Shown here one piece after another: positions 43,765 through 57,331 of a stretch of 64,000 nucleotides of DNA; the stretch's first letter is position 1; each line of letters starts with the position of its first letter. This DNA comes from a virus (taxonomy: Duplodnaviria > Heunggongvirae > Uroviricota > Caudoviricetes), in IMG/VR virus record IMGVR_UViG_3300037245_002365; one strand, given 5' to 3'. The position numbers and the translations under genes were made by a program. The notes beneath the pieces were generated by a model. It searched no databases. It was not told the DNA's origin and saw only the letters and a list, made by a program, of their open reading frames with translations.

Positions 43765-43776
43765 CCAAAAATTAAA

Positions 43777-44211
43777 ATGATTAAAGATCATTATGTTGCA
43801 GGCTTTGTCTTTGACAAAGAACTAGAACATATCTATTTAATTAGAAAAAACAGACCAAGTTGGCAGGAAGGCTTGCTAAATGGAATCGGCGGACACATAG
43901 AGGCTAATGAGTCTCCACTATCCGCAGTGGTTAGAGAGTTTATAGAAGAAACTGCCACTAAAGTAAATGCAGAAGATTGGCATCATATTGCTACCATATC
44001 CAGCAAACCAGATAAAACTTCTGGATTCCCATGGGAATGCTGGTTTTTCATGGCAGTTACTGGACAGACTCCAGTAACCAATACAGATGAAGAAGTTGTT
44101 AAAGTTAGATTAACTGACTTACATGATGGGGACGTAATACCAAATTTAAACTGGTTAATACCTTTAGCACTGCATGGTGAGAAAAGTTGGCCAGTGATAG
44201 CAAATGAGTAA
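43777..44211 (+). CDS. Nudix hydrolase
   Basis: Nudix box GGHIEANESPLSAVVREFIEETA (Gx5Ex7REUxEExGU). Confidence 0.7.
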   Translation: MIKDHYVAGFVFDKELEHIYLIRKNRPSWQEGLLNGIGGHIEANESPLSAVVREFIEETATKVNAEDWHHIATISSKPDKTSGFPWECWFFMAVTGQTPVTNTDEEVVKVRLTDLHDGDVIPNLNWLIPLALHGEKSWPVIANE

Positions 44212-44221
44212 AGGAACATAA

Positions 44222-44653
44222 ATGATATTTTCAGCAGGTGTGATGATCAGAAGAACATCCGATAATAACGTTTTAATATGTCGACCCCTCATGGGTAAGA
44301 CAGCACGCTCTTTTCCAAAGGGAGAAGTTGATGACGGAGAAACTTACGCCCAAACAGCAAAAAGAGAAACTTTTGAAGAAACAAATATAGACCTTCCATT
44401 AGAATCTCTAAAGTATATGGGTCAGTTTAAATATGTTAAGAGAAATAAAACTATCGTTCTATTCTCTGCAACAATAGATGACAAGGATTTACCGGATGAG
44501 CTTATTTGCTCATCAACGTTCCAGCTAAAGGGCAAAGGCCCTCAGTTACCAGAAGTAGATAAATTTGAATGGGTAACCATTTCAGATGCTATCGAACTTG
44601 TGCATGAAGCACAATCAAGGGTCGTTAAGAATTACGTGACAGAAAAAATGTAA
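44222..44653 (+). CDS. Nudix hydrolase (second copy)
   Basis: Nudix box GEVDDGETYAQTAKRETFEETNI. Confidence 0.7.
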   Translation: MIFSAGVMIRRTSDNNVLICRPLMGKTARSFPKGEVDDGETYAQTAKRETFEETNIDLPLESLKYMGQFKYVKRNKTIVLFSATIDDKDLPDELICSSTFQLKGKGPQLPEVDKFEWVTISDAIELVHEAQSRVVKNYVTEKM

Positions 44654-44661
44654 GGAACCGA

Positions 44662-44961
44662 ATGAAAGTTGTATATGATACTGCAGGTATGGAAGAAATG
44701 ATAGACAGTGCAGGTAAAAGGGTATTACACCATCCGAAAGGAAGCTGTAAAAACCAAGAAGCTGGCTGTCCAGTACATAACCCATCAGAGCACAAATTAA
44801 ATGAGGCACCCTTGTTTTTTGCTGATGAGTTATTGTTTCCAGTATTCTTTAGAGTATGCGAACATGGACATAGACATCCAGATCCAGACTCTTTACGTTA
44901 TTATAGAGATATGGGATATTCATTAAATGACAACCACGAATGTGATGGTTGTTGCACATAA
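44662..44961 (+). CDS. His/Cys-rich small protein (metal-binding?)
   Basis: HHPKGSCKNQEAGCPVHNPSEH...CEHGHRH...CDGCC. Confidence 0.5.
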   Translation: MKVVYDTAGMEEMIDSAGKRVLHHPKGSCKNQEAGCPVHNPSEHKLNEAPLFFADELLFPVFFRVCEHGHRHPDPDSLRYYRDMGYSLNDNHECDGCCT

Positions 44962-45062
44962 AAATTATGGAGGGAGTGTAAGGATGTCTAAGTACGTACT
45001 AGAGATACCTTACTACGAGAGGATGACTCAACTCCCTCCGTCACTTTAAAAAAGGAAATTAA

Positions 45063-45335
45063 ATGAGAGATATAAAAGAAGTTATTAGCAGAATGCTTGA
45101 AGTAATTAATGAGCAATCAGAAATAAGCGTTTACATTGAATCGCTTATTGCCGGACTGGAAGATATTCGACTTAGGGTTGATAAAAACCAATCCAACGAC
45201 TTGGCTTGGGGAGGTATAGGACATTATCTTTCAACTTATATGCTCAACTCAAACGATCCAGAATCACCGGAGTGGACAAGAGAGGTTGCCGCATTATTTG
45301 TTGGCAAAACCTACATAGCTCCAGTAACGGAATAG
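45063..45335 (+). CDS. Hypothetical protein
   Basis: 90-aa ORF with a GGAAAT RBS. Confidence 0.5.
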   Translation: MRDIKEVISRMLEVINEQSEISVYIESLIAGLEDIRLRVDKNQSNDLAWGGIGHYLSTYMLNSNDPESPEWTREVAALFVGKTYIAPVTE

Positions 45336-45337
45336 AA

Positions 45338-45577
45338 ATGCTTGACAACAAAAACTTCACAACAATAGTCTATTATGCAGAAGACATAAAAAAGTGGGAA
45401 TATAAACTTACTACCGGCAAACTGATCCTACAAGATGGACGATGGTTTGTTGAAGGTGGGTTTACTATTTCTGGTGGAGCTACTACAGCTGCAAAAGCTT
45501 ATCGCTCAGCAAGAATAAGTTTAGGGCTCAGTAAGTTATATAATTTGCTTATATGGCTTTTGGACAAATACAGATAG
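45338..45577 (+). CDS. Hypothetical protein
   Basis: Starts at the ATG right after the previous stop. The upstream extension shown in the ORF track (from 45206) is not trusted. Confidence 0.45.
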   Translation: MLDNKNFTTIVYYAEDIKKWEYKLTTGKLILQDGRWFVEGGFTISGGATTAAKAYRSARISLGLSKLYNLLIWLLDKYR

Positions 45578-46056
45578 ATAAGAAAGATATGGACGAACAA
45601 AACACAAGATCGTACGATAGCACGAAAGACACCGTTGATCATATAAACAATGTACAAGAGTACCTTCTTTTGATGGCTACTAAATTGCTTGATCGAGGAT
45701 TAAATCATGATAGGTCAAAATTAGATGACCCTGAATTGGAAATATTCAATGAGTTTACTCCAAAGTTAAAGCAATTAACATTCGATAGTGATGAATATAA
45801 GAAATGTCGTGAAGAAATGGCACCAGCGTTAAACCACCATTATGCAAAGAACAGGCATCACCCTGAACACTTTGCTGAAGGGATAAATGATATGACGTTG
45901 ATTGACATTTTAGAGATGCTGTGTGACTGGAAAGCAGCCACACTTCGCCAAAATGATGGCAATCTTAGAAAGAGTCTTGATTCGGCTTCAAAACGATTTA
46001 ATATAGACACACAACTTAAGAAAATACTGTTAAATAGTATTGGGTTGTTTGACTAA
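45553..46056 (+). CDS. HD-domain phosphohydrolase
   Basis: H...NHDRSKL...HHYAKNRHHPEH...D gives the H/HD/H/H/D metal-ligand pattern. Confidence 0.5.
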   Translation: MAFGQIQIDKKDMDEQNTRSYDSTKDTVDHINNVQEYLLLMATKLLDRGLNHDRSKLDDPELEIFNEFTPKLKQLTFDSDEYKKCREEMAPALNHHYAKNRHHPEHFAEGINDMTLIDILEMLCDWKAATLRQNDGNLRKSLDSASKRFNIDTQLKKILLNSIGLFD

Positions 46057-46063
46057 GGTTTGA

Positions 46064-46104
46064 GAAGCAAGCAAAGTTTATTAATTATTTTGCTTGCTTT
46101 TCGA
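46064..46104 (+). terminator. Rho-independent terminator
   Basis: GAAGCAAGCAAAG...TTTGCTTGCTTTT. It overlaps the -35 region of the HNH promoter. Confidence 0.6.
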
Positions 46105-46122
46105 TTCACAATTGTTTATATT
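46094..46122 (+). promoter_or_regulatory. sigma70-like promoter of an HNH gene (TTGCTT-17-TATATT). The ATG lies 6 nt after the -10, so the mRNA is probably leaderless.
   Basis: The same architecture sits upstream of all four HNH paralogs. Confidence 0.55.
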
Positions 46123-46127
46123 TAAGT

Positions 46128-46709
46128 ATGAAAGTTAAATGTAAATACTGTGAAATAGAATTCGACAAGAGACCGGATCAAGTTAAAAAATACAAAAATC
46201 ATTTTTGTAGTAGATCACACGCCGCGTCTTATAATAATAAGATTCACCCAAAATGTAGTTTCGACGGTATTAAAAATGTCTACTGTTTAGATTGTGAAAA
46301 ACCACTTAAGCATAAAACTCACCCTAGAAAAAAATATTGCAATCAGCAGTGCCAAATGAGTTTTCAACACAAAGAGTACATCAGAAGATGGCTCATTGGG
46401 GAAGAAACGGGTAATAGGTGTAAGACTGAGGTATCGATTTCGAAACATGTACGTAGATGGATTTTTGAAAAATATGACAACAAATGTTGTAAATGTGGTT
46501 GGGATAAGATTAACACAACTACGAATAAAATACCACTACAAGTAAGTCATATTGATGGGAACCCTTATAATACAATACCAGAAAATTTAGAACTTATATG
46601 CCCAAATTGCCATTCTTTAACTCCTACGTTTGGAGGACTGAATACAGGTAACGGCAGAAAATTAGAGAGCAATAAGGAAAAATATAGAGCATCGGGCCAC
46701 TGGGTGTAG
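46128..46709 (+). CDS. HNH homing endonuclease (free-standing)
   Basis: Cys-rich CxxC pairs. HNH core ...HIDGNPYNT...NLELICPNCH. The last ~8 codons overlap tRNA-Asp. Confidence 0.7.
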   Translation: MKVKCKYCEIEFDKRPDQVKKYKNHFCSRSHAASYNNKIHPKCSFDGIKNVYCLDCEKPLKHKTHPRKKYCNQQCQMSFQHKEYIRRWLIGEETGNRCKTEVSISKHVRRWIFEKYDNKCCKCGWDKINTTTNKIPLQVSHIDGNPYNTIPENLELICPNCHSLTPTFGGLNTGNGRKLESNKEKYRASGHWV

Positions 46710-46761
46710 CCACCTCCCTGTCACGGAGGATATCAGGCCGGTTCGAACCCGGTATGCTCTG
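46686..46761 (+). tRNA. tRNA-Asp (GTC)
   Basis: Perfect acceptor AGAGCAT/ATGCTCT. Anticodon stem CCTCC/GGAGG with loop CTGTCAC. T-arm GCCGG-TTCGAAC-CCGGT. Short 3-bp D-stem and a 7-nt variable loop. Confidence 0.65.
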
Positions 46762-46803
46762 CGGGGTTGGCCGGTTACCCGTTGAATCGAAAAACGGCAT
46801 TTT

Positions 46804-46878
46804 GGGGATATAGTTTAAATGGGAAAACATTGCCCTTGCAAGGCAAAATTTCGAGTTCGAGCCTCGATTTCTCCACCA
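46804..46878 (+). tRNA. tRNA-Ala (TGC), with encoded CCA
   Basis: D-arm GTTT/AAAC. Anticodon stem TTGCC/GGCAA with loop CTTGCAA. T-arm TCGAG-TTCGAGC-CTCGA. Acceptor GGGGATA/TTTCTCC has one U-U mismatch. Confidence 0.65.
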
Positions 46879-46914
46879 AATTCAATAAAAACAATAATTT
46901 ATGAAGGAGATACT

Positions 46915-47091
46915 ATGTTTGTAAATTTAAATGCAATGACAGATGAAGCGTATCAAGCCTTCATGGAAAAGTATCAAGAAAAAGTATTCGGAATTATCAT
47001 TGAAGCAGAATTTGAAATGGTTGAGAAGAAAGAAACATTTAGAGATAAGATAGGAAAATTGGTAGAAACAATAAAATCAATTAGAAAGTAA
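46915..47091 (+). CDS. Small hypothetical protein
   Basis: AAGGAG RBS 7 nt upstream. The longer ORF starting at 46819 overlaps tRNA-Ala. Confidence 0.5.
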   Translation: MFVNLNAMTDEAYQAFMEKYQEKVFGIIIEAEFEMVEKKETFRDKIGKLVETIKSIRK

Positions 47092-47747
47092 TGAAGATTG
47101 TAGCGATTGCAGATACACATATGCTCCATAATGACTTGATGGTCCCCGAGGGTGACCTACTTATCCACGCAGGAGACATGTGTACATATGGTAGAGAAAA
47201 TGAAGCTAGAGAAACTGCCAAATGGTGGAAATCCTTACCCCACCCTCATAAAATCTATGTTCCAGGAAATCATGATGTATCAATATATGAAAATCGTAGT
47301 TTAAGAGAATTATATGAGGATGAAAATAGCCACGTCTTAATTGACGAGGCTCTAGAAATTGATGGGATTAAGTTTTGGGGTAGCCCATGGACGCCAGAGT
47401 TTTGTGGATGGGCATTTATGCTACAAAGGGGCGGAGACGTACTAGCAAACAATTGGGCTGCTATTCCTGATGACACTGACGTGTTAATTACCCATGGCCC
47501 ACGCTTTGGGTATGGAGATAGAAACGAAGAAAATCTTCCAGTTGGGTGTGAAGCACTAGCTTGGCGGCTAGAGCAAATGCCTGATTTGAAGTACCATATC
47601 TTCGGACACATCCATACAGATTATGGTATAAGAAGATTCAATAACACCTCTGTTATAAACGCTTCTATACATGAGGGTACGTGGAAACACCACGACTTTA
47701 CCCCACCTATTGTTTTTGAGTATGGAGAAGAACCCCATTATGGGTAA
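47091..47747 (+). CDS. Calcineurin-like metallophosphoesterase
   Basis: Motifs IADTH, GDMCTYG, GNHD, GH-H. Confidence 0.7.
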   Translation: MKIVAIADTHMLHNDLMVPEGDLLIHAGDMCTYGRENEARETAKWWKSLPHPHKIYVPGNHDVSIYENRSLRELYEDENSHVLIDEALEIDGIKFWGSPWTPEFCGWAFMLQRGGDVLANNWAAIPDDTDVLITHGPRFGYGDRNEENLPVGCEALAWRLEQMPDLKYHIFGHIHTDYGIRRFNNTSVINASIHEGTWKHHDFTPPIVFEYGEEPHYG

Positions 47748-47898
47748 GAAAAAAATAAAACCGCCTAAGTCAAAATCTTTGACTAAATATCCGATACCAC
47801 CTACTACAAGAGAGGAAGATACCTCGAAACACACTAAAAAAGAGCGGCGGGAAAATAAAAAAGATATGAAGAATATTGAAATTGATTCAGAATAATTG

Positions 47899-47981
47899 GC
47901 CCTGCAGCATTGTGGCATAAATGCGCTAAACTAAGCATGCCCATGGTTTAGAGATATCGGTTCGAGTCCGTTCAGGGTTCA
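47899..47981 (+). ncRNA. tRNA-like element with canonical acceptor, D and T arms but an oversized anticodon region
   Basis: Acceptor GGCCCTG/CAGGGTT. D-arm GCAT-x10-ATGC. T-arm ATCGG-TTCGAGT-CCGTT. A 6-bp stem CTAAAC/GTTTAG encloses a 14-nt loop. Confidence 0.35.
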
Positions 47982-47984
47982 AAA

Positions 47985-48292
47985 TTACCAGGGGACACAC
48001 AATGCATCTGAGTATGGATGGTAATTAACATACAAAAGGATGTAGCGCCCCACCTAACACCCGCAACGGGTGTCGAAGACGCCACGTTACCCACAGTGGC
48101 GCAACTATCTCAGCCGGACCGGGTCTAAGGCCCGGATAGCAGAGATAGATTCTCAGGCCGATATTGCCTGAAAGAAAGTAAAGGGTCAGCAACTGGCAAA
48201 CGGATGATATGGTTAACGCTCGACGTTATTAAAGTTTTGGATCGCTAAGACGCCTATCAGCCCGCCGGTTGTTGACCCTCACTACCTCTATT
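47985..48292 (+). ncRNA. Candidate structured non-coding RNA (GC-rich, many hairpins)
   Basis: No ORF. Hairpins ACACCCG-CAA-CGGGTGT, CGCCAC-x10-GTGGCG, CCGGG-TCTAAGG-CCCGG, and AATTACCA...TGGTAATT. GC content clearly above the flanks. Confidence 0.3.
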
Positions 48293-48365
48293 GAGCTGTA
48301 GCATAACTGGCAATGCACCGGTCTGTTAAACCGGGTTATAGGAGTTCGAAGCTCTTCGGCTCAGC
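48293..48365 (+). tRNA. tRNA-Asn (GTT)
   Basis: Acceptor TGAGCTG/CGGCTCA. D-arm GCAT-AACTGGCA-ATGC. Anticodon stem CCGGT/ACCGG with loop CTGTTAA. T-arm AGGAG-TTCGAAG-CTCTT. Confidence 0.7.
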
Positions 48366-48395
48366 AATAATTTTAACTTAAAAAATGGTGAAATA

Positions 48396-48671
48396 ATGGA
48401 AATAAACAGTACGAAAGACGGAAAATTTTATGTCAGGGATACAGAAACCGGCAGACTATTCCTAGTAGAACCACTAGGGTTTGACAAAGTAGGTTGGGGT
48501 GACATTGACCCTGCTACGAAAAAGGTTCAAGGTGATTACGGTCAGAAACATATAGGCTCAGTATCTGAGAAAAATAGTGTTGTAACAGAAGATAACGGAT
48601 TCAAAAATATTATAGACGTTGGTCCCGGCGAAAGCCCATTTGCAGCGATTGAAAAATTGCTAAAGAAATAA
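48396..48671 (+). CDS. Hypothetical protein
   Basis: 91-aa ORF. Confidence 0.55.
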   Translation: MEINSTKDGKFYVRDTETGRLFLVEPLGFDKVGWGDIDPATKKVQGDYGQKHIGSVSEKNSVVTEDNGFKNIIDVGPGESPFAAIEKLLKK

Positions 48672-48722
48672 AATTTGCGTTCACCTTAAATATGGTGTAT
48701 AATATATAGGGAGCGATAATAT

Positions 48723-49217
48723 ATGAAAAATTTAGATTTTACAAAGTTAGAAGTAAACTGTGATATGGACGGTGTACTAACAAACTTCGCTGGTTCATTT
48801 TTGAAGATATCAAATGACATTGAATGCGACGTTTATGAAAACACACAAGGCTCAGAGAAATTTTGGGAACTTATAGACAAAGAAGGGCTCGACTGGTGGG
48901 CTAATATGCCTTGGATGTCGGATGGAAAACTGCTTTGGTACTATATAGAAAATCTGAGACCCCATATTCTCTCTGCACCCGCAAAGAGATTGCCACAGAG
49001 TAGAGAAGGAAAAAAGATTTGGGTAAAACGTGAGTTAGGTAAAGTACCAGTTAGACTGGGAAAAGCCAAAGACAAACAACAATTCGCTCACGCGAATTGC
49101 ATACTTATAGATGATATGCAACGTAACATCAATCAGTGGCGCGATTCCGGAGGAGTTGGGATACTCCATACTTCAGCAGAAGATACCATAAGACAATTAA
49201 AAGCTTTGGGCCTTTAA
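48723..49217 (+). CDS. HAD-superfamily 5'(3')-nucleotidase-like protein
   Basis: HAD motif I, CDMDGVLTNF. Confidence 0.5.
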   Translation: MKNLDFTKLEVNCDMDGVLTNFAGSFLKISNDIECDVYENTQGSEKFWELIDKEGLDWWANMPWMSDGKLLWYYIENLRPHILSAPAKRLPQSREGKKIWVKRELGKVPVRLGKAKDKQQFAHANCILIDDMQRNINQWRDSGGVGILHTSAEDTIRQLKALGL

Positions 49218-49303
49218 GTAGAAGAAATAAGTCCTATGGGAATGACTATAAGCGAAACCGCCCTAAAGAGTTGAACAACGGATTCAAATATTGAAATAAT
49301 ATA

Positions 49304-49332
49304 TTGACTTTCGAGTCATTCTTGTTTATATT
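49304..49332 (+). promoter_or_regulatory. sigma70-like promoter of an HNH gene (TTGACT-17-TATATT), leaderless start
   Basis: Seen directly. The ATG at 49338 lies 6 nt after the -10. Confidence 0.6.
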
Positions 49333-49337
49333 TAAAT

Positions 49338-49832
49338 ATGAAAGTTAAATGTAAACATTGTGAAATAGAATTTGATAAAAAACCTAATCAAATAAAAAAA
49401 GATAAGAATAATTTTTGCTGCAGATCTCATGCTGCAATTTATAATAATAAGATGTACCAGAAGAGGGCACCAACTAAGTGGCGTTGTATGGATTGTGATA
49501 AAAAAGTAAGCCACGGATCAAAACGCTGCCAAGGCTGTAAACGAATAGATGCTCTTAAAATTTATAATTCTCACACTATAGAAGAAAAAGTATATAAAAA
49601 AGGCGATGCTTCTTTAAAATTTGTATATATACGCAAGCATGCGGGAATAGTTCTTGAGTTAGAAAATAGAAAAAAGAAGTGTGAGGCGTGTGAATGGGAT
49701 AAACATGTCCATGTAGCACATATAAAAGCATTAAGCAGTTTTGATCTAACAACAAAAATTGGTGTAGTAAATGCACCAGAAAATTTAAAGTATCTATGTC
49801 CCAATTGTCATTGGGAATTTGATCATAATTAG
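49338..49832 (+). CDS. HNH homing endonuclease (paralog of 46128)
   Basis: First ~50 nt about 90% identical to the 46128 gene (MKVKCKHCEIEFDK). HNH core CPNCHWEFDHN. Confidence 0.7.
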   Translation: MKVKCKHCEIEFDKKPNQIKKDKNNFCCRSHAAIYNNKMYQKRAPTKWRCMDCDKKVSHGSKRCQGCKRIDALKIYNSHTIEEKVYKKGDASLKFVYIRKHAGIVLELENRKKKCEACEWDKHVHVAHIKALSSFDLTTKIGVVNAPENLKYLCPNCHWEFDHN

Positions 49833-49835
49833 TAT

Positions 49836-49910
49836 GCTCGGTTCGTCTAGACAGGACTAGGACACCGGGTTTTCATCCCGGCAACACGGGATCGTAGCCC
49901 GTACCGAGTA
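49836..49910 (+). tRNA. tRNA-Glu (TTC)
   Basis: Acceptor GCTCGGT/ACCGAGT. Anticodon stem CCGGG/CCCGG with loop TTTTCAT. T-arm ACGGG-ATCGTAG-CCCGT. D-loop is long at 11 nt. Confidence 0.6.
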
Positions 49911-49932
49911 CAAATTCCAACCAACAAGTAAT

Positions 49933-50397
49933 ATGAGTAAAAAGGTAACTACCACTACGGTAGAAAAAGAAAGAACATCAGGATATAAATGGTCTTATGA
50001 AGTTTGGGAAAACCTCCCTGAAAATCAGATCGTTACAAAAAAAGACATTGGCAGCAAAATACAAGTTGCCGGACATTTACATCCTGATCCATATAAACTT
50101 AAAAAGATCGTAGAAGCAAACAAGAAAACACCATATAAAGAAAAGAGCATCATTGCCATGGATAACTATGGTACTGAAAGAACTTTCTATTATACTATGT
50201 GCAGACGGCACCCAAAAGTACTGGCTGAAGAGGCTAGACTAGCCAAAAAGAAGATGAAGAAAAGAAAAGTCAGATGCAAATTATGTGATGAACTTTTTCT
50301 TCGTATCAATGCACATTTAAAGAAAACTCATAAAATGACTCCAGAGGAGTATCAAATTGAATGTAAGACAAGAAATAAAAAGCACACAGATAAATAA
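49933..50397 (+). CDS. Basic hypothetical protein
   Basis: 154-aa Lys-rich ORF. Confidence 0.55.
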   Translation: MSKKVTTTTVEKERTSGYKWSYEVWENLPENQIVTKKDIGSKIQVAGHLHPDPYKLKKIVEANKKTPYKEKSIIAMDNYGTERTFYYTMCRRHPKVLAEEARLAKKKMKKRKVRCKLCDELFLRINAHLKKTHKMTPEEYQIECKTRNKKHTDK

Positions 50398-50650
50398 TTC
50401 TGTGCAAGAATTAAGTTCCAAAATAAAGTCCAGATTAATTGAAAAAGGACGTGGAGCTTTTGTGAGTACTCATGAAATTCTAGGTATCATAACTGAAGAA
50501 TATTATGAATTAGTGGATGCAGTGAGATCAGATGTCGTAGATGATGTCCGATCAGAGTTATTAGATATAGCCGTAGGTTGTATTTTTGGCATAGCCTGTA
50601 TCAACGAAAACACCATGAAACAGCAAAACGAAGAGGAAGTGGGTAAGTAA
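50357..50650 (+). CDS. MazG-like NTP pyrophosphohydrolase domain protein
   Basis: ILGIITEEYYELVDAVRSD...DELLDIA has the EExxE...D pattern of MazG. Confidence 0.45.
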   Translation: MNVRQEIKSTQINNSVQELSSKIKSRLIEKGRGAFVSTHEILGIITEEYYELVDAVRSDVVDDVRSELLDIAVGCIFGIACINENTMKQQNEEEVGK

Positions 50651-51133
50651 ATGGCAGATAAGTTTAAATTAAAAGATCCAGTAAAACTGGTAAGCACCAG
50701 AGGTAAACCTATAACAAAGGAAAATACTGGAACTATTACTAGGGTAAGGTCTGTGAGTAGTGGTTACTACACATCAAACCGTGAATATACAGTAACATTC
50801 AATTCAGGTAAAGCAAACACTTATAAAGCGGGACAACTGGATTTATTAATTACTAAAGACAAAGGTGATATAGCAAGTATCAGTAGAAAAGAAGTTACGG
50901 ATGGATTAAATACCGTAATGATAAAAATAAAAGAGAAAACTGATGAAATGAAGATAATTCAAGATCAGATTGCTTTTATGGATTTATCCAATGTTGATGA
51001 ATTAAATCTAAATTTGTACAAATCTTATAAAATAGCACAAATGCTTTCTCAGAAAGAAGAGTGCAGTGAGTTAGAAATGGCATCCGCTATACAAGATCTA
51101 ATGTATAACGAACAAAGCCCATACACTGACTAA
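50651..51133 (+). CDS. Hypothetical protein
   Basis: 160-aa ORF. Confidence 0.55.
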   Translation: MADKFKLKDPVKLVSTRGKPITKENTGTITRVRSVSSGYYTSNREYTVTFNSGKANTYKAGQLDLLITKDKGDIASISRKEVTDGLNTVMIKIKEKTDEMKIIQDQIAFMDLSNVDELNLNLYKSYKIAQMLSQKEECSELEMASAIQDLMYNEQSPYTD

Positions 51134-51171
51134 AAAATTAGTCTCGCTCAGAAAGCTGGGCGAGATAAATA

Positions 51172-51348
51172 CGGCGGGTAGCTCAAATTGGAGAGCAGCC
51201 ACTAAAGGAGCTTACTGAACGGATCGTTAATAACGAGGGCGATCTAAGGGTAGGGGTTACCGAATATACGGACGGATGTCCAAAACTCGTGGTAACTTTA
51301 AGCAGAGATTAGTGAGCACGGATGCTGGTTCGAGTCCAGCCCCGGCGA
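51172..51348 (+). ncRNA. tRNA-like element: 5' acceptor plus D-arm, and 3' T-arm plus acceptor, separated by about 120 nt
   Basis: CGGCGGG-TA-GCTC-AAATTGGA-GAGC at 51172-51197. GCTGG-TTCGAGT-CCAGC-CCCGGCG-A at 51324-51348. Confidence 0.3.
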
Positions 51349-51420
51349 CAAGTTCCCAAAGTACCTCTCCGCGGCTCAGTGTGAGGACTAGCGATGGAAG
51401 TTCGCTCTTTGGGATAATTA

Positions 51421-51541
51421 GGGCCTAATAGCATAACGGATAATGCACTTGATCAGCGTTGAGCCAGAAGTCTGAAATTGTGTACAAAGTTTAGAATAAA
51501 CTTCTGAGGGAAATAGATGGGTTCGACTCCCATTGGGTCCA
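51421..51541 (+). ncRNA. tRNA-like element with an enlarged anticodon region
   Basis: Acceptor GGGCCTA/TGGGTCC. D-arm GCAT-x8-ATGC. T-arm ATGGG-TTCGACT-CCCAT. The internal 7-bp stem CAGAAGT/ACTTCTG encloses a 28-nt loop. Confidence 0.3.
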
Positions 51542-51961
51542 CAAATTACAAGCGGTAGGCTTAGAAGTAGCCATCCTTAATAAGTGAGGTAGCGTACCGA
51601 TGGTGGCCTTGCGCTGCTTGAGGGATGCATTGCGCTTTGCTTCTTGGGTGTAACAACATGCTTGTTAAAATTGGATTAAATAATGTCAGGTAGGGGCCTG
51701 ACGGATACATATAGCACCGGTATGGTGAATAGGAACGCCCGAACGATCAGTAAATATCCGGTATCCCCGGAGGCGTACAAAATGCCTATCAATCGGTTGA
51801 AAGTCTAAGGAAGTGAACTAACGAATAGATCTTCTGGGATGTCGGCGGAAACTGAAAAGTTAGTAGTCAGGTTGTAAATAAAACGTTAATATAAAATACA
51901 ACTGAACGAGTTATATGTCAAAATGTCGTCTTTAGGCATTATTTAATCTGATTAAAATTGA

Positions 51962-52035
51962 CGCGGGGTAGGGCAGTTTGGTAGCCCGCCAGCCTCATAA
52001 GCTGGAGGTCGCCGGTTCAAATCCGGCCCCCGCTA
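51962..52035 (+). tRNA. tRNA-Met (CAT)
   Basis: D-arm GGGC/GCCC. Anticodon stem CCAGC/GCTGG with loop CTCATAA. T-arm GCCGG-TTCAAAT-CCGGC. Acceptor has a C1-U72 mismatch. CCA is encoded. Confidence 0.7.
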
Positions 52036-52061
52036 CCAAGTAGTAAATAGATTCAAACAAT

Positions 52062-52135
52062 AGCGGGGTAGAGCAGTCCAGTAGCTCGTCAGTCTCATAA
52101 ACTGAAGGTCGTGGGAGCGAAGCCCACCCCCGCTA
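52062..52135 (+). tRNA. tRNA with anticodon CAT (Met, or Ile2 by lysidine)
   Basis: Perfect acceptor AGCGGGG/CCCCGCT. Anticodon stem TCAGT/ACTGA with loop CTCATAA. T-arm GTGGG-AGCGAAG-CCCAC has an unusual T-loop. Confidence 0.7.
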
Positions 52136-52157
52136 CTAAATTAATAAAGAGGTAGAT

Positions 52158-52838
52158 ATGACAAAACGTAGAAGCAAAGCATTACGCCTTAAAAAGAAAC
52201 AGAAAGAAGTACTGGATTTTGACCGTCAACTCACAGAGATATACAAAAGGCAAAACAATCCTAGAAGAGTCAAATTAGATAAACCACATAATGTTGGCTG
52301 GCAAAAAATATGGCATATTCGTAAAGATCGTGGATTGCTTGAAGAAGAAATAGACGCTATCCAAAATTACTTGGACACCTGCACCTATTTACACTGGGCA
52401 AGAAAAAAATCAAGATTGACGGCGGAAGTACCAAGGGTTAAAATCTATCTGACTAAAAAAGACTTAAAAGCTTTACCAACAAAAAAGGTTAAATTACTTT
52501 TTGATACAGACTGGATGGCATTCCTTGCAAACAAACGTTATCGAATAAGTGACTATGCTTACAGACAATATTTCTGGACAGAGATAATACATTACCGAGT
52601 TAATGAAGCTGCCGAGTTTGATCCAAGGCTCGAAAGTAGGAAGTACTTTTTGCATAAGAGGCTCTATGGCGAAGGCCAGTGGAGAAAGTTCGCCGGTCGA
52701 GACAATGGCGGCGGTAAAGACCACCACTGTTTAGGCGAAAGCCGTTGTGCAGAGCACTACCATAGAAAGGCTGATAAAAAAATAGCTAGAGTAGAAATTA
52801 ACGAAGCAGTACAAGATATAATCGCACCGATTGAATAG
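52158..52838 (+). CDS. Hypothetical basic protein (226 aa)
   Basis: ORF with a GAGG RBS. Confidence 0.6.
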   Translation: MTKRRSKALRLKKKQKEVLDFDRQLTEIYKRQNNPRRVKLDKPHNVGWQKIWHIRKDRGLLEEEIDAIQNYLDTCTYLHWARKKSRLTAEVPRVKIYLTKKDLKALPTKKVKLLFDTDWMAFLANKRYRISDYAYRQYFWTEIIHYRVNEAAEFDPRLESRKYFLHKRLYGEGQWRKFAGRDNGGGKDHHCLGESRCAEHYHRKADKKIARVEINEAVQDIIAPIE

Positions 52839-52859
52839 GTGATGGCTTGCAGTAATAAT

Positions 52860-53185
52860 GGATCGTACCCCGAGCTAACAAGGTTAGCATGGCCCTGTAC
52901 TACGATGATTATTACACCACTTGTGGGCAAACTAGATAGCAAAACAGGGCCAAAGAATTAAACATGACAGTAGGACATATTCGCAGATAATGCTGAGGCT
53001 CAGGATGTCTATATAATCCCGTCCGCTGGCAGTAGCAATTAAAAATAGGTGACACTCCTTTGGCAAGGGGTGGTGTACTAGTAAACGGTGGAATAACATA
53101 TCTCGCGGGGTCTTATGCCACCCCGAGGCAACGGATTAGGAGTGCCAACTCTATGCCCTGCCTCGGCTTGATGCCACAATTAAAT
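52860..53185 (+). ncRNA. Candidate structured non-coding region
   Basis: No convincing ORF. Hairpins GCTAAC-AAG-GTTAGC, GGCCCTG...CAGGGCC, CTGAGG-CTCAG, GGGGTGG...CCACCCC, CCGAGGCA...TGCCTCGG. Confidence 0.25.
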
Positions 53186-53260
53186 GCCCTCGTAGCTTTA
53201 ATTGGACAGAGCGCCGCGCTACGGACGCGGAGGTTGGGAGTTCGAATCTCTCCGAGGGTG
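53186..53260 (+). tRNA. tRNA-Arg (ACG)
   Basis: Acceptor GCCCTCG/CGAGGGT. Anticodon stem CCGCG/CGCGG with loop CTACGGA. T-arm GGGAG-TTCGAAT-CTCTC. Confidence 0.8.
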
Positions 53261-53274
53261 CAAAAGAATTAAGG

Positions 53275-53397
53275 GGAACGCTGGCAAGGAGTTAATATTA
53301 ATAAACCTCTACATTATCAGAATGTGGCGAGCCGGGCGATCTGATCACTCGCTGTCCGATGGACTATTGGGAGTTCGACTCTCTTCTTCCCCACCAA
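53275..53397 (+). ncRNA. tRNA-like 3' end (GGGAG-TTCGACT-CTCTT-CTTCCCC-A-CCA) with a possible far-upstream acceptor GGGGAAC
   Basis: T-arm and 3' CCA seen directly. 122 nt is too long for a canonical tRNA. Confidence 0.25.
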
Positions 53398-53424
53398 TTA
53401 TTATAGACTTAAAATTATAAGACT

Positions 53425-53452
53425 TGATTTTAAGTCTAAATATGTTTATATT
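53425..53452 (+). promoter_or_regulatory. sigma70-like promoter of an HNH gene (TTGATT-16-TATATT), leaderless start
   Basis: Seen directly. ATG at 53458. Confidence 0.55.
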
Positions 53453-53457
53453 TAGGT

Positions 53458-53973
53458 ATGAATACAAAAATATGTACAAAATGTACCAAAGAAAAGTCTC
53501 TAGAAGACTTCAACTTTAAAAATAAAACAAAAGGTATTAAACAGGCACAGTGTAAAGAATGTCAATCCATATACTTTAAAAAACACTATAGCAAAAACGT
53601 AGAAAAATACTGTAAGCGAGCCAGAACCTCTAATCCAGCAGCAAAAAAAAGAAATAGAGAGTTTATTATATCCTATTTGCTAGAACACTCCTGTGTAGAT
53701 TGTGAAGAAACTGATATTGTTGTATTGGATTTTGATCACGTTATTGGTGAAAAGCGTGAAACGGTTTCTACTATGGCAAGATCGCCTTATAGTATTAAAT
53801 CCATAAAAGAAGAAATAGGTAAATGTGAGATTCGTTGTGCAAATTGTCACCGAAGAAGACATTCCAAAGAAAATGGTTTTTACAAAGAAGGCGTCGTAGC
53901 TCCAAAGGTAGAGCGAAAGTCTGAAAAACTTTGCGTTGGTGGTTCGAATCCGCCCGATGCCACAAACCAATAA
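53458..53973 (+). CDS. HNH homing endonuclease. Its last ~28 codons read through tRNA-Phe.
   Basis: CTKCTKEK...CKECQ...DHVIGEKRET...CANCHRRRH. Confidence 0.7.
   Translation: MNTKICTKCTKEKSLEDFNFKNKTKGIKQAQCKECQSIYFKKHYSKNVEKYCKRARTSNPAAKKRNREFIISYLLEHSCVDCEETDIVVLDFDHVIGEKRETVSTMARSPYSIKSIKEEIGKCEIRCANCHRRRHSKENGFYKEGVVAPKVERKSEKLCVGGSNPPDATNQ
53890..53962 (+). tRNA. tRNA-Phe (GAA), lying inside the 3' end of the HNH ORF
   Basis: Acceptor GGCGTCG/CGATGCC. D-arm GCTC/GAGC. Anticodon stem AAAGT/ACTTT with loop CTGAAAA. T-arm GGTGG-TTCGAAT-CCGCC. Confidence 0.8.
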
Positions 53974-53978
53974 ATAAA

Positions 53979-54586
53979 ATGACAGATGAAATAAAAAGAT
54001 CGAATTATATGTGGTTGGGAGAATTACGGTCCTGGAATAAACCTGGACTAAAGTTAAACCAATTACAAGGCACCCCTATAAGGAAGTCCTTAGAGAGGGT
54101 GTAAGATTAGTAGAATCCTTAGGCATATTCACTTGGCTCTCAGCAGGCACCGCTTTAGGAATTTATAGAGACGGTGGCCCAATAGAAGTAGGAGATTGGG
54201 ATTTAGACATAGGTATTTATGGTCATGACTTTACTGACGATATTGAATTGTTGCTTAATAAGCATGGATTTGATACAGTAAGAGCTGTTGATAAAATTAA
54301 ACCTATGCAGAGATGCTACCAGAAAAACAATGTAATATTAGACATAATGTGCTACCACAAAGATACTGATGGTACATATGTTAATTATGTTGATTGGTCT
54401 GAAGTTCGCAAACCTGCAAAATTACTAGAAAACTTTGATGATATTGATTACGATGGCAAGACCTATAACCTTCCTTTGGCTCCAGATTATTTTGAATGGA
54501 GATATGGAAAAGACTGGGAAACACCCAAAGACGGTTTCAAAGGTATATATGGTGAAGCCATGAGTGTGACAGAAGAAACTAATTAA
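53979..54586 (+). pseudogene. LicD/fukutin-like nucleotidyltransferase-fold gene, split between two reading frames (frameshifted or pseudogene)
   Basis: ATG at 53979 gives a 41-aa frame-0 piece that ends at 54104. The -1 frame is open from 54041 to 54586 with no ATG or GTG before the TTG at 54248. That frame encodes GTALGIYRDGGPIEVGDWDLDIGIY, which is like the LicD GxLLGAVRHGGFIPWDDDID motif. Confidence 0.45.
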
Positions 54587-54601
54587 AAAAGAAACGAGAT
54601 A

Positions 54602-54826
54602 TTGATGTGTGACGCACAAAAAGAACTTATGGAACAAATTCATGGAATACAGCCTTGTGATGTTAATGTGTGTAATAATCCAGTACGAAAATTTTCTCCT
54701 AAAGTTAAAGCTGGAATTGGCAGAAAAGGTAAAAGATGGAGCCGAGTATGTGGAGAATGCTACAAAGAAATAAGTCAGCGACAACTTTATATATCTTTAG
54801 CAAACTTGGTTAAACGCAGATTTTAA
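54602..54826 (+). CDS. Cys-rich small protein
   Basis: MCDAQKE...CDVNVCNN...CGECY. Confidence 0.45.
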   Translation: MMCDAQKELMEQIHGIQPCDVNVCNNPVRKFSPKVKAGIGRKGKRWSRVCGECYKEISQRQLYISLANLVKRRF

Positions 54827-54835
54827 TAGTAAGCC

Positions 54836-54863
54836 CCTGTAGCTGAGTCCGGTTTAGCGCTTT
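54836..54863 (+). pseudogene. 5' fragment of a tRNA (acceptor plus D-arm), a partial duplicate of tRNA-Thr
   Basis: GCCCCTGTAGCTGAGTCCGGTTTAGCGC versus tRNA-Thr GCCCCTGTAACTCAGTCCGGTTAGAGTAGC at 55471. Confidence 0.5.
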
Positions 54864-54877
54864 TAATATAAAAGTAC

Positions 54878-54906
54878 TTGACAAATGAGCTATATATGTC
54901 TATATT
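54878..54906 (+). promoter_or_regulatory. Consensus sigma70 promoter TTGACA-17-TATATT for an HNH gene
   Basis: Seen directly. ATG 5 nt after the -10. Confidence 0.65.
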
Positions 54907-54911
54907 TAAGT

Positions 54912-55469
54912 ATGGATAAAAAAATACTTGAAATATATATAGAGCAGGGTATGTCAACATATCAAATTGCTAAAGAAGAAAATTGCGGACAAACCAACGT
55001 AAGGCATTGGCTGAATAAATATGATCTTTCTACTAAATATGTTAGAAAGAAAACTATTAGACCGATTCATATTTGTAAAAACTGCGACAAAACATTAGAT
55101 CACAATATTAGAAGTCAAAGGGTTTACTGCTCTACAAATTGTCATCAAAAATATATGGCAAAAGAAAGAGATAAGCGTATAGAAACTGCTGGGGGTTTGC
55201 CAGATAATATGGCTATTAGAACTCTTAAAACCTATATGTTAAAAAAACGCGGAGTTGTCTGTCAAATTTGTGAACTAACAGAATGGAATAATAAACCAAT
55301 ACCTCTAGTTTTAGATCATATAAATGGAGATTCAACTAATAGTAGTTTTGAAAATTTACGATTAGTTTGTGGAAATTGTGATATGCAATTACCAACATAT
55401 AAGGGTAAAAATGCAGGAAACGGAAGACATAGTCGAAGACAACGATATAAAGACGGAAAATCTTATTAA
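54912..55469 (+). CDS. HNH homing endonuclease (inserted beside tRNA-Thr)
   Basis: MDKKILE... (ATG follows the conserved TATATTTAAGT). CKNC...CSTNCHQKY...DHINGDSTN...CGNCD. Confidence 0.7.
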   Translation: MDKKILEIYIEQGMSTYQIAKEENCGQTNVRHWLNKYDLSTKYVRKKTIRPIHICKNCDKTLDHNIRSQRVYCSTNCHQKYMAKERDKRIETAGGLPDNMAIRTLKTYMLKKRGVVCQICELTEWNNKPIPLVLDHINGDSTNSSFENLRLVCGNCDMQLPTYKGKNAGNGRHSRRQRYKDGKSY

Positions 55470-55470
55470 T

Positions 55471-55545
55471 GCCCCTGTAACTCAGTCCGGTTAGAGTAGC
55501 TGATTTGTAATCAGCCTGTCGTTGGTTCGAATCCAATCGGGGGCT
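55471..55545 (+). tRNA. tRNA-Thr (TGT)
   Basis: Acceptor GCCCCTG/CGGGGGC. D-arm ACTC/GAGT. Anticodon stem GCTGA/TCAGC with loop TTTGTAA. T-arm GTTGG-TTCGAAT-CCAAT. Confidence 0.8.
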
Positions 55546-55564
55546 CAAATAAAGGAAAAGAAAA

Positions 55565-55834
55565 ATGAGTTATACACCAGCAGAACAACAACAAATACTT
55601 GAAGATGCTAAAAAAGTGGTAGATGTTTTAAAGAAAGCTGTTGATCTATTTAAAGATAACACACCTCTAACTGACGAAGAAAAAGATGCAGTTAATAAAA
55701 AATTGATAGAAGATTGTGTTAGTCCAGAACACAGTCCACCCATGCATAGAGTATATGAAGTTGGAACACACGAGCATGTATGCCCATCTTGCAGACAAGT
55801 AACCAAGTTTTTTGTACCAATGGTAAGATGTTAA
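55565..55834 (+). CDS. Hypothetical protein with a CPSC motif
   Basis: 89-aa ORF with a GGAAAAG RBS. Confidence 0.5.
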   Translation: MSYTPAEQQQILEDAKKVVDVLKKAVDLFKDNTPLTDEEKDAVNKKLIEDCVSPEHSPPMHRVYEVGTHEHVCPSCRQVTKFFVPMVRC

Positions 55835-55851
55835 ATAACCAAAAATAAATA

Positions 55852-56067
55852 ATGAAAAGATGTGATAGGCTCGGATGTGGAAGAACCATTTTCCCTTCGA
55901 GGGGCTGGGGAAGAATAGCCCTAAAGATAACTGATAAACTACTAATTTTAGAGCTATGTAATTCATGCTACAATGAAATAACTCCCGAAGACTTTGGAGT
56001 AGAAGTAATTTTAAAACAAGGTAAAAATGGCGAAGAAGATATCGCAGTTTACGAAAAAAATGTATAA
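55852..56067 (+). CDS. Small Cys-containing protein
   Basis: 71-aa ORF. Confidence 0.4.
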   Translation: MKRCDRLGCGRTIFPSRGWGRIALKITDKLLILELCNSCYNEITPEDFGVEVILKQGKNGEEDIAVYEKNV

Positions 56068-56328
56068 ATATATAATTAAAGTGTGCTTCAGCACAACAAA
56101 TGATCAGCACCCACTTAAGAGTGCGGAAGATGCAATAAAAGAAATCTTGTCGGGCGACAAAATATTAGTAAAGCCAACAGTGAACATAGCAGAACTTGAC
56201 GTAGAAAACCTCATGACATTTAAGGAAGAAAAACTAGTCAAGACTGAAATTAAAAGAATTTTTAACACTATATACCCGGAGACAGAGATCATACATGTGA
56301 AAATTGAAAGAGCACATTAGGAGATACC

Positions 56329-56538
56329 ATGATATTTGACATGCAGGAATGGATGTACGAGTGGGTGGAAGAACACAAAGACAAACAAGATGATGGAACC
56401 ATCAAAGTAAGCATCTTCGGAGAAGACGCTGTAATATTTGATGACGGGGAAGATGCAGATGACTTCCTATGGAATTTAGCACCAGATGAATACCATGAGT
56501 ATATGTCTGGTTATGGAGAGGATTTAAAAGATGAGTGA
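56329..56538 (+). CDS. Acidic small protein
   Basis: 69-aa ORF with a GGAGAT RBS. Confidence 0.45.
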   Translation: MIFDMQEWMYEWVEEHKDKQDDGTIKVSIFGEDAVIFDDGEDADDFLWNLAPDEYHEYMSGYGEDLKDE

Positions 56539-56839
56539 AGAAGAAAAAGAAATGACGACAGATGAGTTTTCAGAAATCGTTAAGGAAGGTATAACACTAG
56601 TAGATTTTTATGCTGATTGGTGTGGACCTTGTAAACAGATTGCACCAATATTAGAAGAACTTACTGATGTTAGAGTTCTAAAAGTTAATGTAGATGAGCA
56701 CAAAGATGTGACAACACTGCACGGGGTACGTAGTATTCCAACAGTATTTTTATATAAAGACGGTATAGTAGTTAAGTCACTTTTGGGTGCAAACTCAAAA
56801 GAAACCTACCAAAAAGCAATTGATGCATTAATCGAATAA
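56531..56839 (+). CDS. trx: Thioredoxin
   Basis: WCGPC active site, about 100 aa. Confidence 0.8.
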   Translation: MSEEEKEMTTDEFSEIVKEGITLVDFYADWCGPCKQIAPILEELTDVRVLKVNVDEHKDVTTLHGVRSIPTVFLYKDGIVVKSLLGANSKETYQKAIDALIE

Positions 56840-56843
56840 TGTT

Positions 56844-57098
56844 ATGGACGACAACAAAGTTGAAAAATATCATGAGATAGATTACACTATCTTAAAAGTA
56901 TGTGGTACTTGTATCCATGCTCGCTTTAAACCAAGAAATGTTTGGGGTACGTGTTCAAAATACGCATATGACCATATGAAACATACAGATTCCCATAGGC
57001 AATTAAGTATATATAAGTTTGGGACATGCCCAAGTGCAGAGGTCGATAATGCAATTAGAGATGCTTTAGGTAAGTATGCAATTTTGATAAAGAAATAA
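56844..57098 (+). CDS. Cys/His-containing small protein
   Basis: 84-aa ORF. Confidence 0.45.
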   Translation: MDDNKVEKYHEIDYTILKVCGTCIHARFKPRNVWGTCSKYAYDHMKHTDSHRQLSIYKFGTCPSAEVDNAIRDALGKYAILIKK

Positions 57099-57103
57099 AA
57101 TTC

Positions 57104-57169
57104 TGTAATGTAGCTCAGCGGACAGAGTCCCCGGCGGGGGAGACACGAGTTCGAATCTCGTCATTACGG
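57104..57169 (+). ncRNA. tRNA-like element with a truncated anticodon arm (66 nt)
   Basis: Acceptor TGTAATG/CATTACG. D-arm GCTC/GAGT. T-arm ACGAG-TTCGAAT-CTCGT. Only a TCCCC-GGCG-GGGGA hairpin where the anticodon arm should be. Confidence 0.35.
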
Positions 57170-57175
57170 AAGATA

Positions 57176-57249
57176 CGGGGTATGGCGCAGTCCGGTAGCG
57201 CACTCGCTTTGGGAGCGAGGGGCCGCAGGTTCGAATCTTGCTACTCCGA
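57176..57249 (+). tRNA. tRNA-Pro (TGG)
   Basis: Acceptor CGGGGTA/TACTCCG. D-arm GCGC/GCGC. Anticodon stem CTCGC/GCGAG with loop TTTGGGA. T-arm GCAGG-TTCGAAT-CTTGC. Confidence 0.8.
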
Positions 57250-57255
57250 CATTAT

Positions 57256-57331
57256 GGTGATTGTAGCTCAGTGGTAGAGCGCTCGGTTGTGGCCCGAGAG
57301 GTCGAGGGTTCGAGACCCTCCTTTCACCCCA
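57256..57331 (+). tRNA. tRNA-His (GTG) with a genomically encoded G-1 and encoded CCA
   Basis: Extra 5' G opposite discriminator C73. Anticodon stem CTCGG/CCGAG with loop TTGTGGC. T-arm GAGGG-TTCGAGA-CCCTC. Acceptor has two U-U mismatches. Confidence 0.7.

Follow-up and report, generated by a model that had tools for sequence, protein, structure and literature searches.

What is a tRNA-shaped gene for when it has no anticodon loop? The question is raised by an array of transfer RNA (tRNA) genes at positions 42764..57331, on the + strand, of a 64,000-nucleotide (nt) stretch of phage DNA (IMG/VR record IMGVR_UViG_3300037245_002365), the whole of which is called the window here. Among the canonical tRNAs of this array lie five tRNA-like elements, E1 to E5, none of which has a normal anticodon loop. 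The tRNA genes that phages carry in clusters are generally taken to do no more than supplement codons or replace tRNAs cleaved by host nucleases. For these elements the original prediction had offered three other readings: tRNAs with small intervening sequences, stable RNAs like the species RNAs of phage T4, or degenerating pseudogenes. Stable RNAs give the best fit, in view of the conservation of E2 and E5 with compensatory changes and of the parallel with T4 rnaC. In the form that we favour, to which we give about an even chance, the elements would be non-decoding RNAs built on a tRNA frame, cut from the transcript of the array, stable, and functional in their lower half.

That the elements have the outer architecture of tRNAs can be tested by scanning for this architecture whilst ignoring the anticodon region. 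A strict frame scan (7-bp acceptor, U8, 4-bp D stem, 5-bp T stem with G53-C61 and a T loop T[TA]C[AG]A) gave 12 matches on the + strand of the window, comprising E2, E3, E4 and nine canonical tRNAs, and 0 on the - strand. The chance level of the scan is 0.02 matches per dinucleotide-shuffled window, and shuffled GC-rich islands gave none; the tRNA frames of E2-E4 are real and far beyond chance. E1 and E5 pass a relaxed version of the scan. Thus the claim of tRNA-like elements with an abnormal anticodon region holds, with E1 weaker than E2-E4 and with E5 real. Standard tools see little of this. At its default setting ARAGORN calls none of the five candidates and finds 12 canonical tRNAs in the array (Gly, Asp, Ala, Asn, Glu, two Met, Arg, Phe, Thr, Pro and His, all on the + strand), not the 13 counted before. 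The Rfam tRNA model RF00005 (gathering score 29 bits) matches E4 (57104-57169) with 40.9 bits and E1 (47906-47980) with 31 bits, the latter with permissive filters only, and gives no match to E2, E3 or E5.

What the five elements do not have is a 5-bp stem with a 7-nt anticodon loop carrying U33 and a purine at 37; their loops are of 4 nt (E3 and E4), 9 nt (E5), 14 nt (E1) and ~103 nt (E2). What they have kept is more uniform. The elbow bases A14 and G18G19 and the T-loop bases are present in E2-E4, the N73-CAA trailer of the real tRNAs is also found in E2 and E3, an ACCA is encoded in E5, and the elements share the strand and context of the real tRNAs.

Each element departs from a tRNA in its own way. 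E2 (51172..51348, +), found by the strict scan and with a predicted fold more stable than shuffles (RNAfold z = -2.3), is a complete tRNA frame with acceptor CGGCGGG/CCCGGCG, canonical D and T arms and an A73-CAA trailer. Its anticodon stem is lengthened (GCCACTAA/TTAGTGaGC) and encloses ~103 nt (51206-51308) that fold into two hairpins; an insertion of ~120 nt had been noted earlier. E3 (51421..51541, +; z = -2.0) passes the strict scan with a 3-nt linker and has an acceptor with G3.U70 and A73, a D arm, a canonical T arm and an A73-CAA trailer. It carries a hairpin CTTGAT-CAGC-GTTGAG (51448-51463) at the anticodon position, and the predicted 7-bp stem with a 28-nt loop is found as a 42-nt hairpin at the position of the variable arm (51465-51506). 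E4 (57104..57169, +) is only 66 nt long and passes the strict scan with a 15-nt middle region. It has acceptor TGTAATG/CATTACG and canonical D and T arms, with CCCC-GGCG-GGGG (57129-57140), the hairpin with a 4-nt loop seen earlier, replacing the anticodon arm, and sits 7 nt upstream of tRNA-Pro.

In E1 (47898..47980, +) sequence reading and RNAfold bear out the 6-bp stem with a 14-nt loop (CTAAAC/GTTTAG), set between acceptor GGCCCTG/CAGGGTT and a D arm GCAT..ATGC. However, E1 has C8 and U14, its T stem contains a U.U mismatch and its acceptor is topped by two G.U pairs. ARAGORN recognizes E1 at a lowered threshold only, and the element folds no more stably than shuffles (z = 0.07); it is the weakest tRNA-like of the set. 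E5 (53273..53396, +), which has an orthologue in a related phage, had been listed only as a possible fifth member. It proves to be real, but most of its enlargement lies in the D region, where two extra hairpins are its chief oddity. Its acceptor is of 5-6 bp; a stem GGCGA/TCGCT is closed by the 9-nt loop (UCUGAUCAC, 53335-53353) and followed by a class II-type variable hairpin (GTCC-GAT-GGAC), a T arm near-identical to that of the neighbouring tRNA-Arg, and the encoded ACCA at the 3' end.

Conservation can be judged from a relative. A search with a calcineurin-like phosphoesterase encoded beside E1 (47091-47747, +; Pfam) gave two close homologues with 78-80% identity, one of them on an 84-kb contig that contains the locus L168. 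This is the sole syntenic relative found, the synteny running from the ligase to the thioredoxin gene; parts of the array are also covered by three short contigs of other relatives, L170, L003 and L164. Proteins of the window and of L168 are 60-87% identical, four-fold degenerate sites are 52% identical and intergenic flanks are unalignable. Neutral sequence is therefore near saturation, and any conserved RNA stands out against it.

E2 stands out in this way. Its orthologue (L168 13671-13851), which scores 34.5 bits with the Rfam tRNA model and shares the G3xG70 acceptor mismatch, is 78% identical in the frame and 77% in the payload stems, whereas the unpaired payload is 49% identical, the neutral level. 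All 39 of the 39 consensus pairs are kept in both phages, with 5 compensatory changes and 0 broken pairs, compared with 0-1 compensatory changes when the partner strand is slid by 1-3 columns as a control. One compensatory example is GGATCGTT/GGCGATCT in the window, which becomes GGATTACT/GGTAATCT in L168, and a second is GGTTACCG/TGGTAACT, which becomes GGTCACTA/TTGTGACT. In both phages one 3' strand (UUAGUGAG) is able to pair with two 5' strands, and this dual pairing may reflect an alternative fold of E2. Conserved payload stems whose loops drift at the neutral rate point to recognition of shape by a protein rather than to base pairing. A tag-like reading frame and a Shine-Dalgarno sequence (AAGGAG) seen in E2 were rejected, since neither is conserved in L168.

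E5 shows the same pattern. In L168 its orthologue (17933-18056) lies directly upstream of tRNA-Phe, whereas in the window an HNH cassette intervenes, and the two are 76% identical. The 32 pairs include 5 compensatory changes spread over four helices and none is broken (0-1 compensatory changes in the slid-partner control, 1-3 columns). Both phages share the loop core UCUGAUCA and the encoded ACCA; E5 is absent 3' of tRNA-Arg in the more distant relative L003. The E5 covariance model also matches class II tRNAs, those with a long variable arm, T4 tRNA-Leu among them, and E5 therefore descends from such a tRNA.

The best-conserved non-coding piece of the region was absent from the earlier list. 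This 61-nt element, sp23 (51354..51414, +; z = -2.0), adjoins the 3' end of E2 in both phages and is 97% identical to L168 13860-13921. Its predicted fold is a three-way junction: an 8-bp closing stem (UCCCAAAG/CUUUGGGA), UA, a hairpin CCUC..GAGG, ACU and, abutting the 3' strand of the closing stem, a hairpin AGCGA-UGGAAGU-UCGCU (5 bp, 7-nt loop UGGAAGU). In the model this layout looks like a tRNA minus its anticodon arm, with D-like and T-like hairpins. Sequence comparison thus clearly indicates purifying selection on E2, E5 and sp23, within a set that is mixed.

Could the elements be genuine tRNAs that need extra maturation, their inserts being spliced or trimmed, perhaps by phage RNA ligases, or that decode with enlarged loops? 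Two RNA ligases and the phosphoesterase are encoded nearby, the canonical set as called by ARAGORN is without Leu, Ser, Tyr, Ile, Lys and others, and intron-aware ARAGORN does return models: Leu(gag) with a 98-nt intron for E2, Met(cat) with 27 nt for E3 and Met(cat) with 9 nt for E1. However, these models require mismatched stems, or loops without U33 or without a purine at 37, so that removal of the inserts restores no canonical loop, and the same model assigns the E2 orthologues different anticodons, Leu(gag) in the window and Asn(att) in L168. The E5 loop is of 9 nt in the window but of 10 nt in L168, and E4 could not accommodate an anticodon at all. The inserts, of 9-103 nt, show no match to any Rfam intron family, group I included, at E <= 10, and no bulge-helix-bulge motif. 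Intervening sequences in otherwise ordinary tRNAs, as the original prediction had suggested, thus appear highly improbable.

Several observations weigh against the favoured reading of stable, non-decoding RNAs. Expression, processing, stability and any function of the elements are things that we infer, and the covariation rests on two sequences, those of the window and L168, with the structure predicted from the same two. The E2, E5 and sp23 models gave no further homologues in ~170 phage loci, in which sp23 had no other match. Neither L170 nor L168 has E1 at the syntenic site, and E3, together with the 420-nt non-coding stretch that follows it, is absent from L003 and from L168, where sp23 is followed by a promoter and a gene. 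The position of E4 evolves fast: L168 has there (20316-20394) another sequence of the same design, with a perfect 7-bp acceptor ATGGTTG/CAACCAT, a D arm and CCGGCT-AUGG-AGCCGG but a decayed T arm, which fits weak or no constraint, and L164 has only an unrelated hairpin. Finally, HNH homing genes unsettle the array, and debris is obvious at 54833-54854 in the window and at 9903-9950 in L168.

Much of this would be expected if the elements were evolutionary debris, that is, tRNA pseudogenes left by deletions and insertions in a fast-turning array through HNH homing, duplication and illegitimate recombination, and a family only in the sense that they are recognizable. Mobile elements do leave tRNA gene fragments and pseudogenes (PMC9897764). 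The array has four HNH endonuclease open reading frames (ORFs) on the + strand (46128-46709, 49338-49832, 53458-53973 and 54885-55469; Pfam), each ending a few bases from, or inside, a tRNA gene (Asp, Glu, Phe and Thr, respectively). Three of the four (49338, 53458 and 54885) have their own TTGAC..TATATT promoter, and HNH ORFs lie at other tRNAs in L168, so they are mobile. Directly upstream of the fourth, a 22-nt remnant of tRNA-Thr, from the 5' part of the gene (54833-54854), precedes a small hairpin; this fragment and the clearly truncated copy at L168 9903-9950 are debris of the kind that mobile elements leave. The defects and unremarkable fold of E1, the absence of E1 and E3 from relatives, and the loss of E4 from L164 and its replacement in L168 by a copy with a degenerate T arm all fit decay.

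The difficulty for debris is the set of elements that have not decayed. E2 and E5 are full-length, conserved and covarying, unlike integration fragments, in which one half of the tRNA is lost, and they keep all predicted pairs through five double changes each, whilst neutral sites have fallen to 52% identity; sp23 has remained 97% identical. Even the acceptors of E4 and its L168 counterpart are both perfect 7-bp helices though 5 of their 7 positions differ, and the inserts that replace the anticodon loop are themselves well-formed hairpins. Debris is therefore unlikely as the explanation of the elements, though it deserves serious consideration. Pseudogene decay is excluded for E2 and E5 by the compensatory changes; E1, E3 and E4, which are specific to this lineage, may have joined the class recently or may be decaying copies. 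Conservation in relatives, proposed as a check, accordingly gave a divided answer: L168 keeps E2 and E5, has neither E1 nor E3, and differs in sequence where E4 would lie. The argument that recurrence of the pattern speaks against random decay does not carry much weight, because a copy can be recognized only if its acceptor, D and T arms are intact, and the sample is biased accordingly. Attempts to trace each element to a single parent isotype were dropped, since the best matches to 514 phage tRNAs were generic (~60-70% identity).

A different role for the tRNA-like folds would be as punctuation, serving only as RNase P and 3'-end cleavage signals that define the ends of other RNAs: small mRNAs, sp23, and two structured non-coding stretches, nc1 (47982-48291, GC-rich, z = -5.7 against shuffles) and nc2 (51542-51961, 420 nt, z = -3.0). 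The arrangement is suggestive, as nc1 is flanked by E1 and tRNA-Asn, sp23 by E2 and E3, and nc2 by E3 and tRNA-Met, and a promoter scan finds few + strand terminators or strong promoters inside the array. But the conserved, covarying payloads of E2 and E5 would be superfluous for a cleavage signal, sp23 of L168 has no tRNA-like element on its 3' side, and tRNA-Pro, 7 nt from E4, would supply a cut there anyway. Punctuation as the sole role is thus quite unlikely. L170 retains the central part of nc1 and L168 its 5' hairpin; nc1 has no Rfam match and is probably an undescribed structured RNA. The other stretch, nc2, has no + strand ORF of at least 50 amino acids and is absent from L168 and L003. 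The idea that the non-coding islands are remnants of HNH pseudogenes was rejected, tblastn being negative.

Returning to stable, non-decoding RNAs, a scheme for their production can be proposed. The elements would be transcribed together with the tRNA array and then released, probably by RNase P and the 3'-end enzymes, with a CCA end gained or kept. What has been retained is what RNase P, the 3'-end enzymes and the CCA-adding enzyme recognize in a tRNA, namely the acceptor/T-arm stack, the elbow (in E2-E4) and the tRNA-like trailers, whereas the decoding part has been replaced, with a capped hairpin or a larger folded insert in place of the 7-nt anticodon loop. It is this combination that leads us to propose that the elements are cut like tRNAs and that the lower half is cargo. 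The released RNAs may persist as stable small species with the variable lower half as the functional part, which would probably act by binding a putative protein rather than by base pairing. The same logic is found in the vtRNAs of murine gammaherpesvirus 68 (MHV68), in the MALAT1 mascRNA and in the engineered tRNA scaffold, where a non-decoding tRNA-shaped module recruits RNase P, RNase Z and the CCA-adding enzyme and a cargo in the anticodon arm is stabilized. Those systems are eukaryotic or artificial; to our knowledge, no example of a conserved cargo on a tRNA-shaped module has been characterized in a bacterial virus.

The closest phage parallel is provided by T4, whose non-decoding RNA C and RNA D have been known for decades. 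Like the elements, T4 rnaC (RNA C, species 1) is encoded in a phage tRNA cluster on the tRNA strand, with the homing endonuclease gene segB beside it. Its T arm (CCGGG-UUCGAAU-CCCGG) is canonical and leads into a 3' strand resembling that of an acceptor; long hairpins stand in place of the D and anticodon arms, and there is no 7-nt anticodon loop. The window elements share with it a place in the tRNA cluster, the tRNA strand, a T arm with acceptor-like closure and the missing anticodon loop. Unlike E2-E4, whose acceptor and D arms are complete, rnaC forms only 5 of the 7 acceptor pairs, and T4 has two such RNAs, rnaD itself being without a tRNA-like fold, as against five or six in this phage. 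No sequence homology to rnaC or rnaD was found beyond a generic T-loop match (GGTTCGAATCC), and the elements are therefore analogues of the T4 RNAs, not members of their family. RNA C is described as a stable RNA of unexplained function (PMC3014915, PMC9697503). No anticodon-less tRNA-like RNA of a phage other than T4 RNA C and D turned up in searches of the literature. Several such RNAs in one lineage, together with insert-bearing frames elsewhere, thus provide a comparative handle on the old question of RNA C and RNA D.

Another parallel is the tRNA-like domain of transfer-messenger RNA (tmRNA), which consists of an acceptor and a T arm without an anticodon. As in tmRNA, a long helix leaves the E2 frame at the position of the anticodon stem, and charging with alanine via G3.U70 would be possible for E3. 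Unlike tmRNA, which is ~230 nt or more, the elements are 66-177 nt long, keep a full D stem and have no pseudoknots and no conserved tag reading frame. A tmRNA or permuted tmRNA was rejected, the only indications being an ARAGORN call at a lowered threshold (tag EVAYRWWPCAA) and sub-threshold Rfam matches to the T arm only.

The acceptor end could nevertheless be the functional part, with the elements serving as amino-acid carriers, charged without an anticodon for a tmRNA-like or non-ribosomal role, or as decoys that soak up host toxins attacking the 3' ends or bodies of tRNAs. Recognition of the acceptor stem alone by alanyl-tRNA synthetase is established, and the alanine identity set, G3.U70 with A73, is found both in E3 and in an anticodon-less tRNA-like element at L168 9737-9805, which has GGCA-CACC-TGCC at the anticodon position. 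These two could be chargeable without an anticodon, or the pair could be mere inheritance from a tRNA-Ala parent; ARAGORN calls no canonical tRNA-Ala in the L168 locus. The CCA encoded in E5 also fits such a role, as does the presence in the same island of genes for RNA ligases, a SpoU methylase and two NUDIX hydrolases. On the other hand, E3 is not conserved, E2, E4 and E5 have no recognizable identity set, no target for a decoy is known, and neither a tag reading frame, pseudoknots nor a tmRNA match at normal thresholds was found. Carriers or decoys acting through the acceptor end are thus very unlikely as the general explanation.

Non-coding RNAs with a tRNA-like module are also known in the form of YrlA (RF02553), which is often linked to RNA-repair genes (PMC4201824, PMC7824862). 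The topology is opposite, however, since YrlA ends at the anticodon side and its acceptor is closed by a loop. YrlA was rejected here, as the only Rfam matches, with 27.3 and 20.9 bits, fall far below the threshold of 69 and extend over two neighbouring tRNAs; no TROVE domain was found in the 20 ORFs scanned.

Are such frames peculiar to this lineage? The E2 covariance model acts as a detector of insert-bearing tRNA frames, and many were found in other large phages. One frame, AGTCAGG-TG-GCGGAATTGGTAGACGC ... ACAGGTTCGAATCCTGT-CCTGACT-A, has a tRNA-Leu-type D arm, A73 and a hypervariable middle of 45-95 nt, and occurs in 13 distinct copies in 8 contigs (L105, L027, L049, L060, L064, L066 and L108 among them), with six copies in tandem in L105 (842-2393). 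In L064 (470-559), L099 (12773-12861) and L088 (12111-12199) the anticodon arm is replaced by a ~16-bp hairpin capped by GUGA, and the acceptor stems differ among the phages with their pairing kept. The capped-hairpin design recurs independently in E3, in E4, in L168 at 9737-9805 (40.6 bits with the Rfam tRNA model) and 20316-20394, and in L064/L099. More elaborate is an arrangement in L064 (14248-14426), L055 (14717-14895) and L074 (20717-20900), in which an apparently complete tRNA, with a hairpin in its D loop, lies between D-arm-like and T-arm-like halves that are joined by a long inverted repeat; an outer acceptor stem was not identified.

A rearranged tRNA-Arg-like gene common to L168 (17643-17716) and an unrelated phage contig, L175 (~1040-1115), has an acceptor, a 3-bp stem enclosing a 4-bp anticodon hairpin (7-nt loop, ACG or UCU) and a canonical T arm, with a D-loop-like GGxTAATTGGATxCAT placed 3' of the anticodon hairpin. 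ARAGORN missed one copy and called the other an intron-bearing 'tRNA-Pyl'. The tRNA-Asn (10925-11012, 88 nt) and tRNA-Pro (20399-20482, 84 nt) of L168 have long variable arms, which are unusual for those isotypes. It thus seems that the tRNA islands of large phages generally contain tRNA frames that bear inserts or have no anticodon, and that standard tools overlook them. For annotation this means that such genes are missed by standard tRNA finders or labelled as pseudo, intron-containing or undetermined tRNAs, and mislabelled elements can inflate or distort the tRNA repertoires reported for phages.

A wider proposal, which we put forward tentatively as a possibility that falls well short of an even chance, is that these frames belong to an unrecognized and widespread class of large-phage RNAs with a constant, processable tRNA top half and an interchangeable cargo in the lower half. 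E2, E5 and sp23 would be conserved members of this class, and the AGUCAGG...CCUGACU frames would be included in it. In the conflict over host translation its members might sequester tRNA-targeting defences or tRNA-binding enzymes, as decoys or sponges, or serve as anticodon-independent aminoacyl carriers. The genes next to the elements offer circumstantial evidence, in that RNA-repair and RNA-modification functions suggest a role in conflict over host tRNAs or translation. They form an island on the + strand (39-58 kb; Pfam) that comprises an Rnl2-type RNA ligase (39205-39864, +), an Rnl1-type RNA ligase (41353-42564, +), the SpoU methylase, the two NUDIX hydrolases, the phosphoesterase, the tRNAs and the HNH genes, with small ORFs as well as the HNH genes between the tRNAs of the array.

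The source of the window is a large AT-rich phage (GC ~35%), of which identical contigs, the longest of 228 kb, occur in a Joint Genome Institute (JGI) metagenome and a Logan assembly. When 47800-53500 was searched for near relatives in INPHARED, the sole match was a piece of the size of a tRNA-Met, in Vibrio phages, and there was thus no close relative among deposited phage genomes. Searches of IMG/VR with the ORF at 50651-51133, with an E4 pattern and with an sp23 21-mer gave no match. Nor was the 21-mer found in the JGI metagenome and GTDB genome collections, the former of which is also without the window's own contig. Neither BLAST nor covariance models revealed a homologue of E1-E5 or sp23 in the 160 IMG/VR loci fetched via RNA ligase and DUF4326 proteins. 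For ORF226 and ORF84 the contigs with homologues are short (2.5 kb and 1 kb), and a Metallophos homologue, P0009, was rejected as a relative because it is bacterial chromosomal DNA.

Other non-coding pieces of the region are also conserved. An element of ~125 nt lying 3' of the ORF at 52158-52838 is conserved in three phages (window 52846-52965, L003 1144-1277 and L168 16782-16918); its GGCCCTGT/ACAGGGCC helix is invariant, its internal hairpin varies in sequence with the pairing kept, and it has no Rfam match. The 40-nt spacer between tRNA-Asp and tRNA-Ala (46763-46803; GGGGTTGGCCGGTTACCCGTTGAATCGAAAAACGGCA) is near-identical in L168 (9853-9897) despite differing neighbours. Beyond the array, three adjoining genes (59952-63242) encode a vWA-domain protein, a PP2C phosphatase and, by a weak match, a kinase-like protein, an arrangement reminiscent of vWA-based conflict systems.

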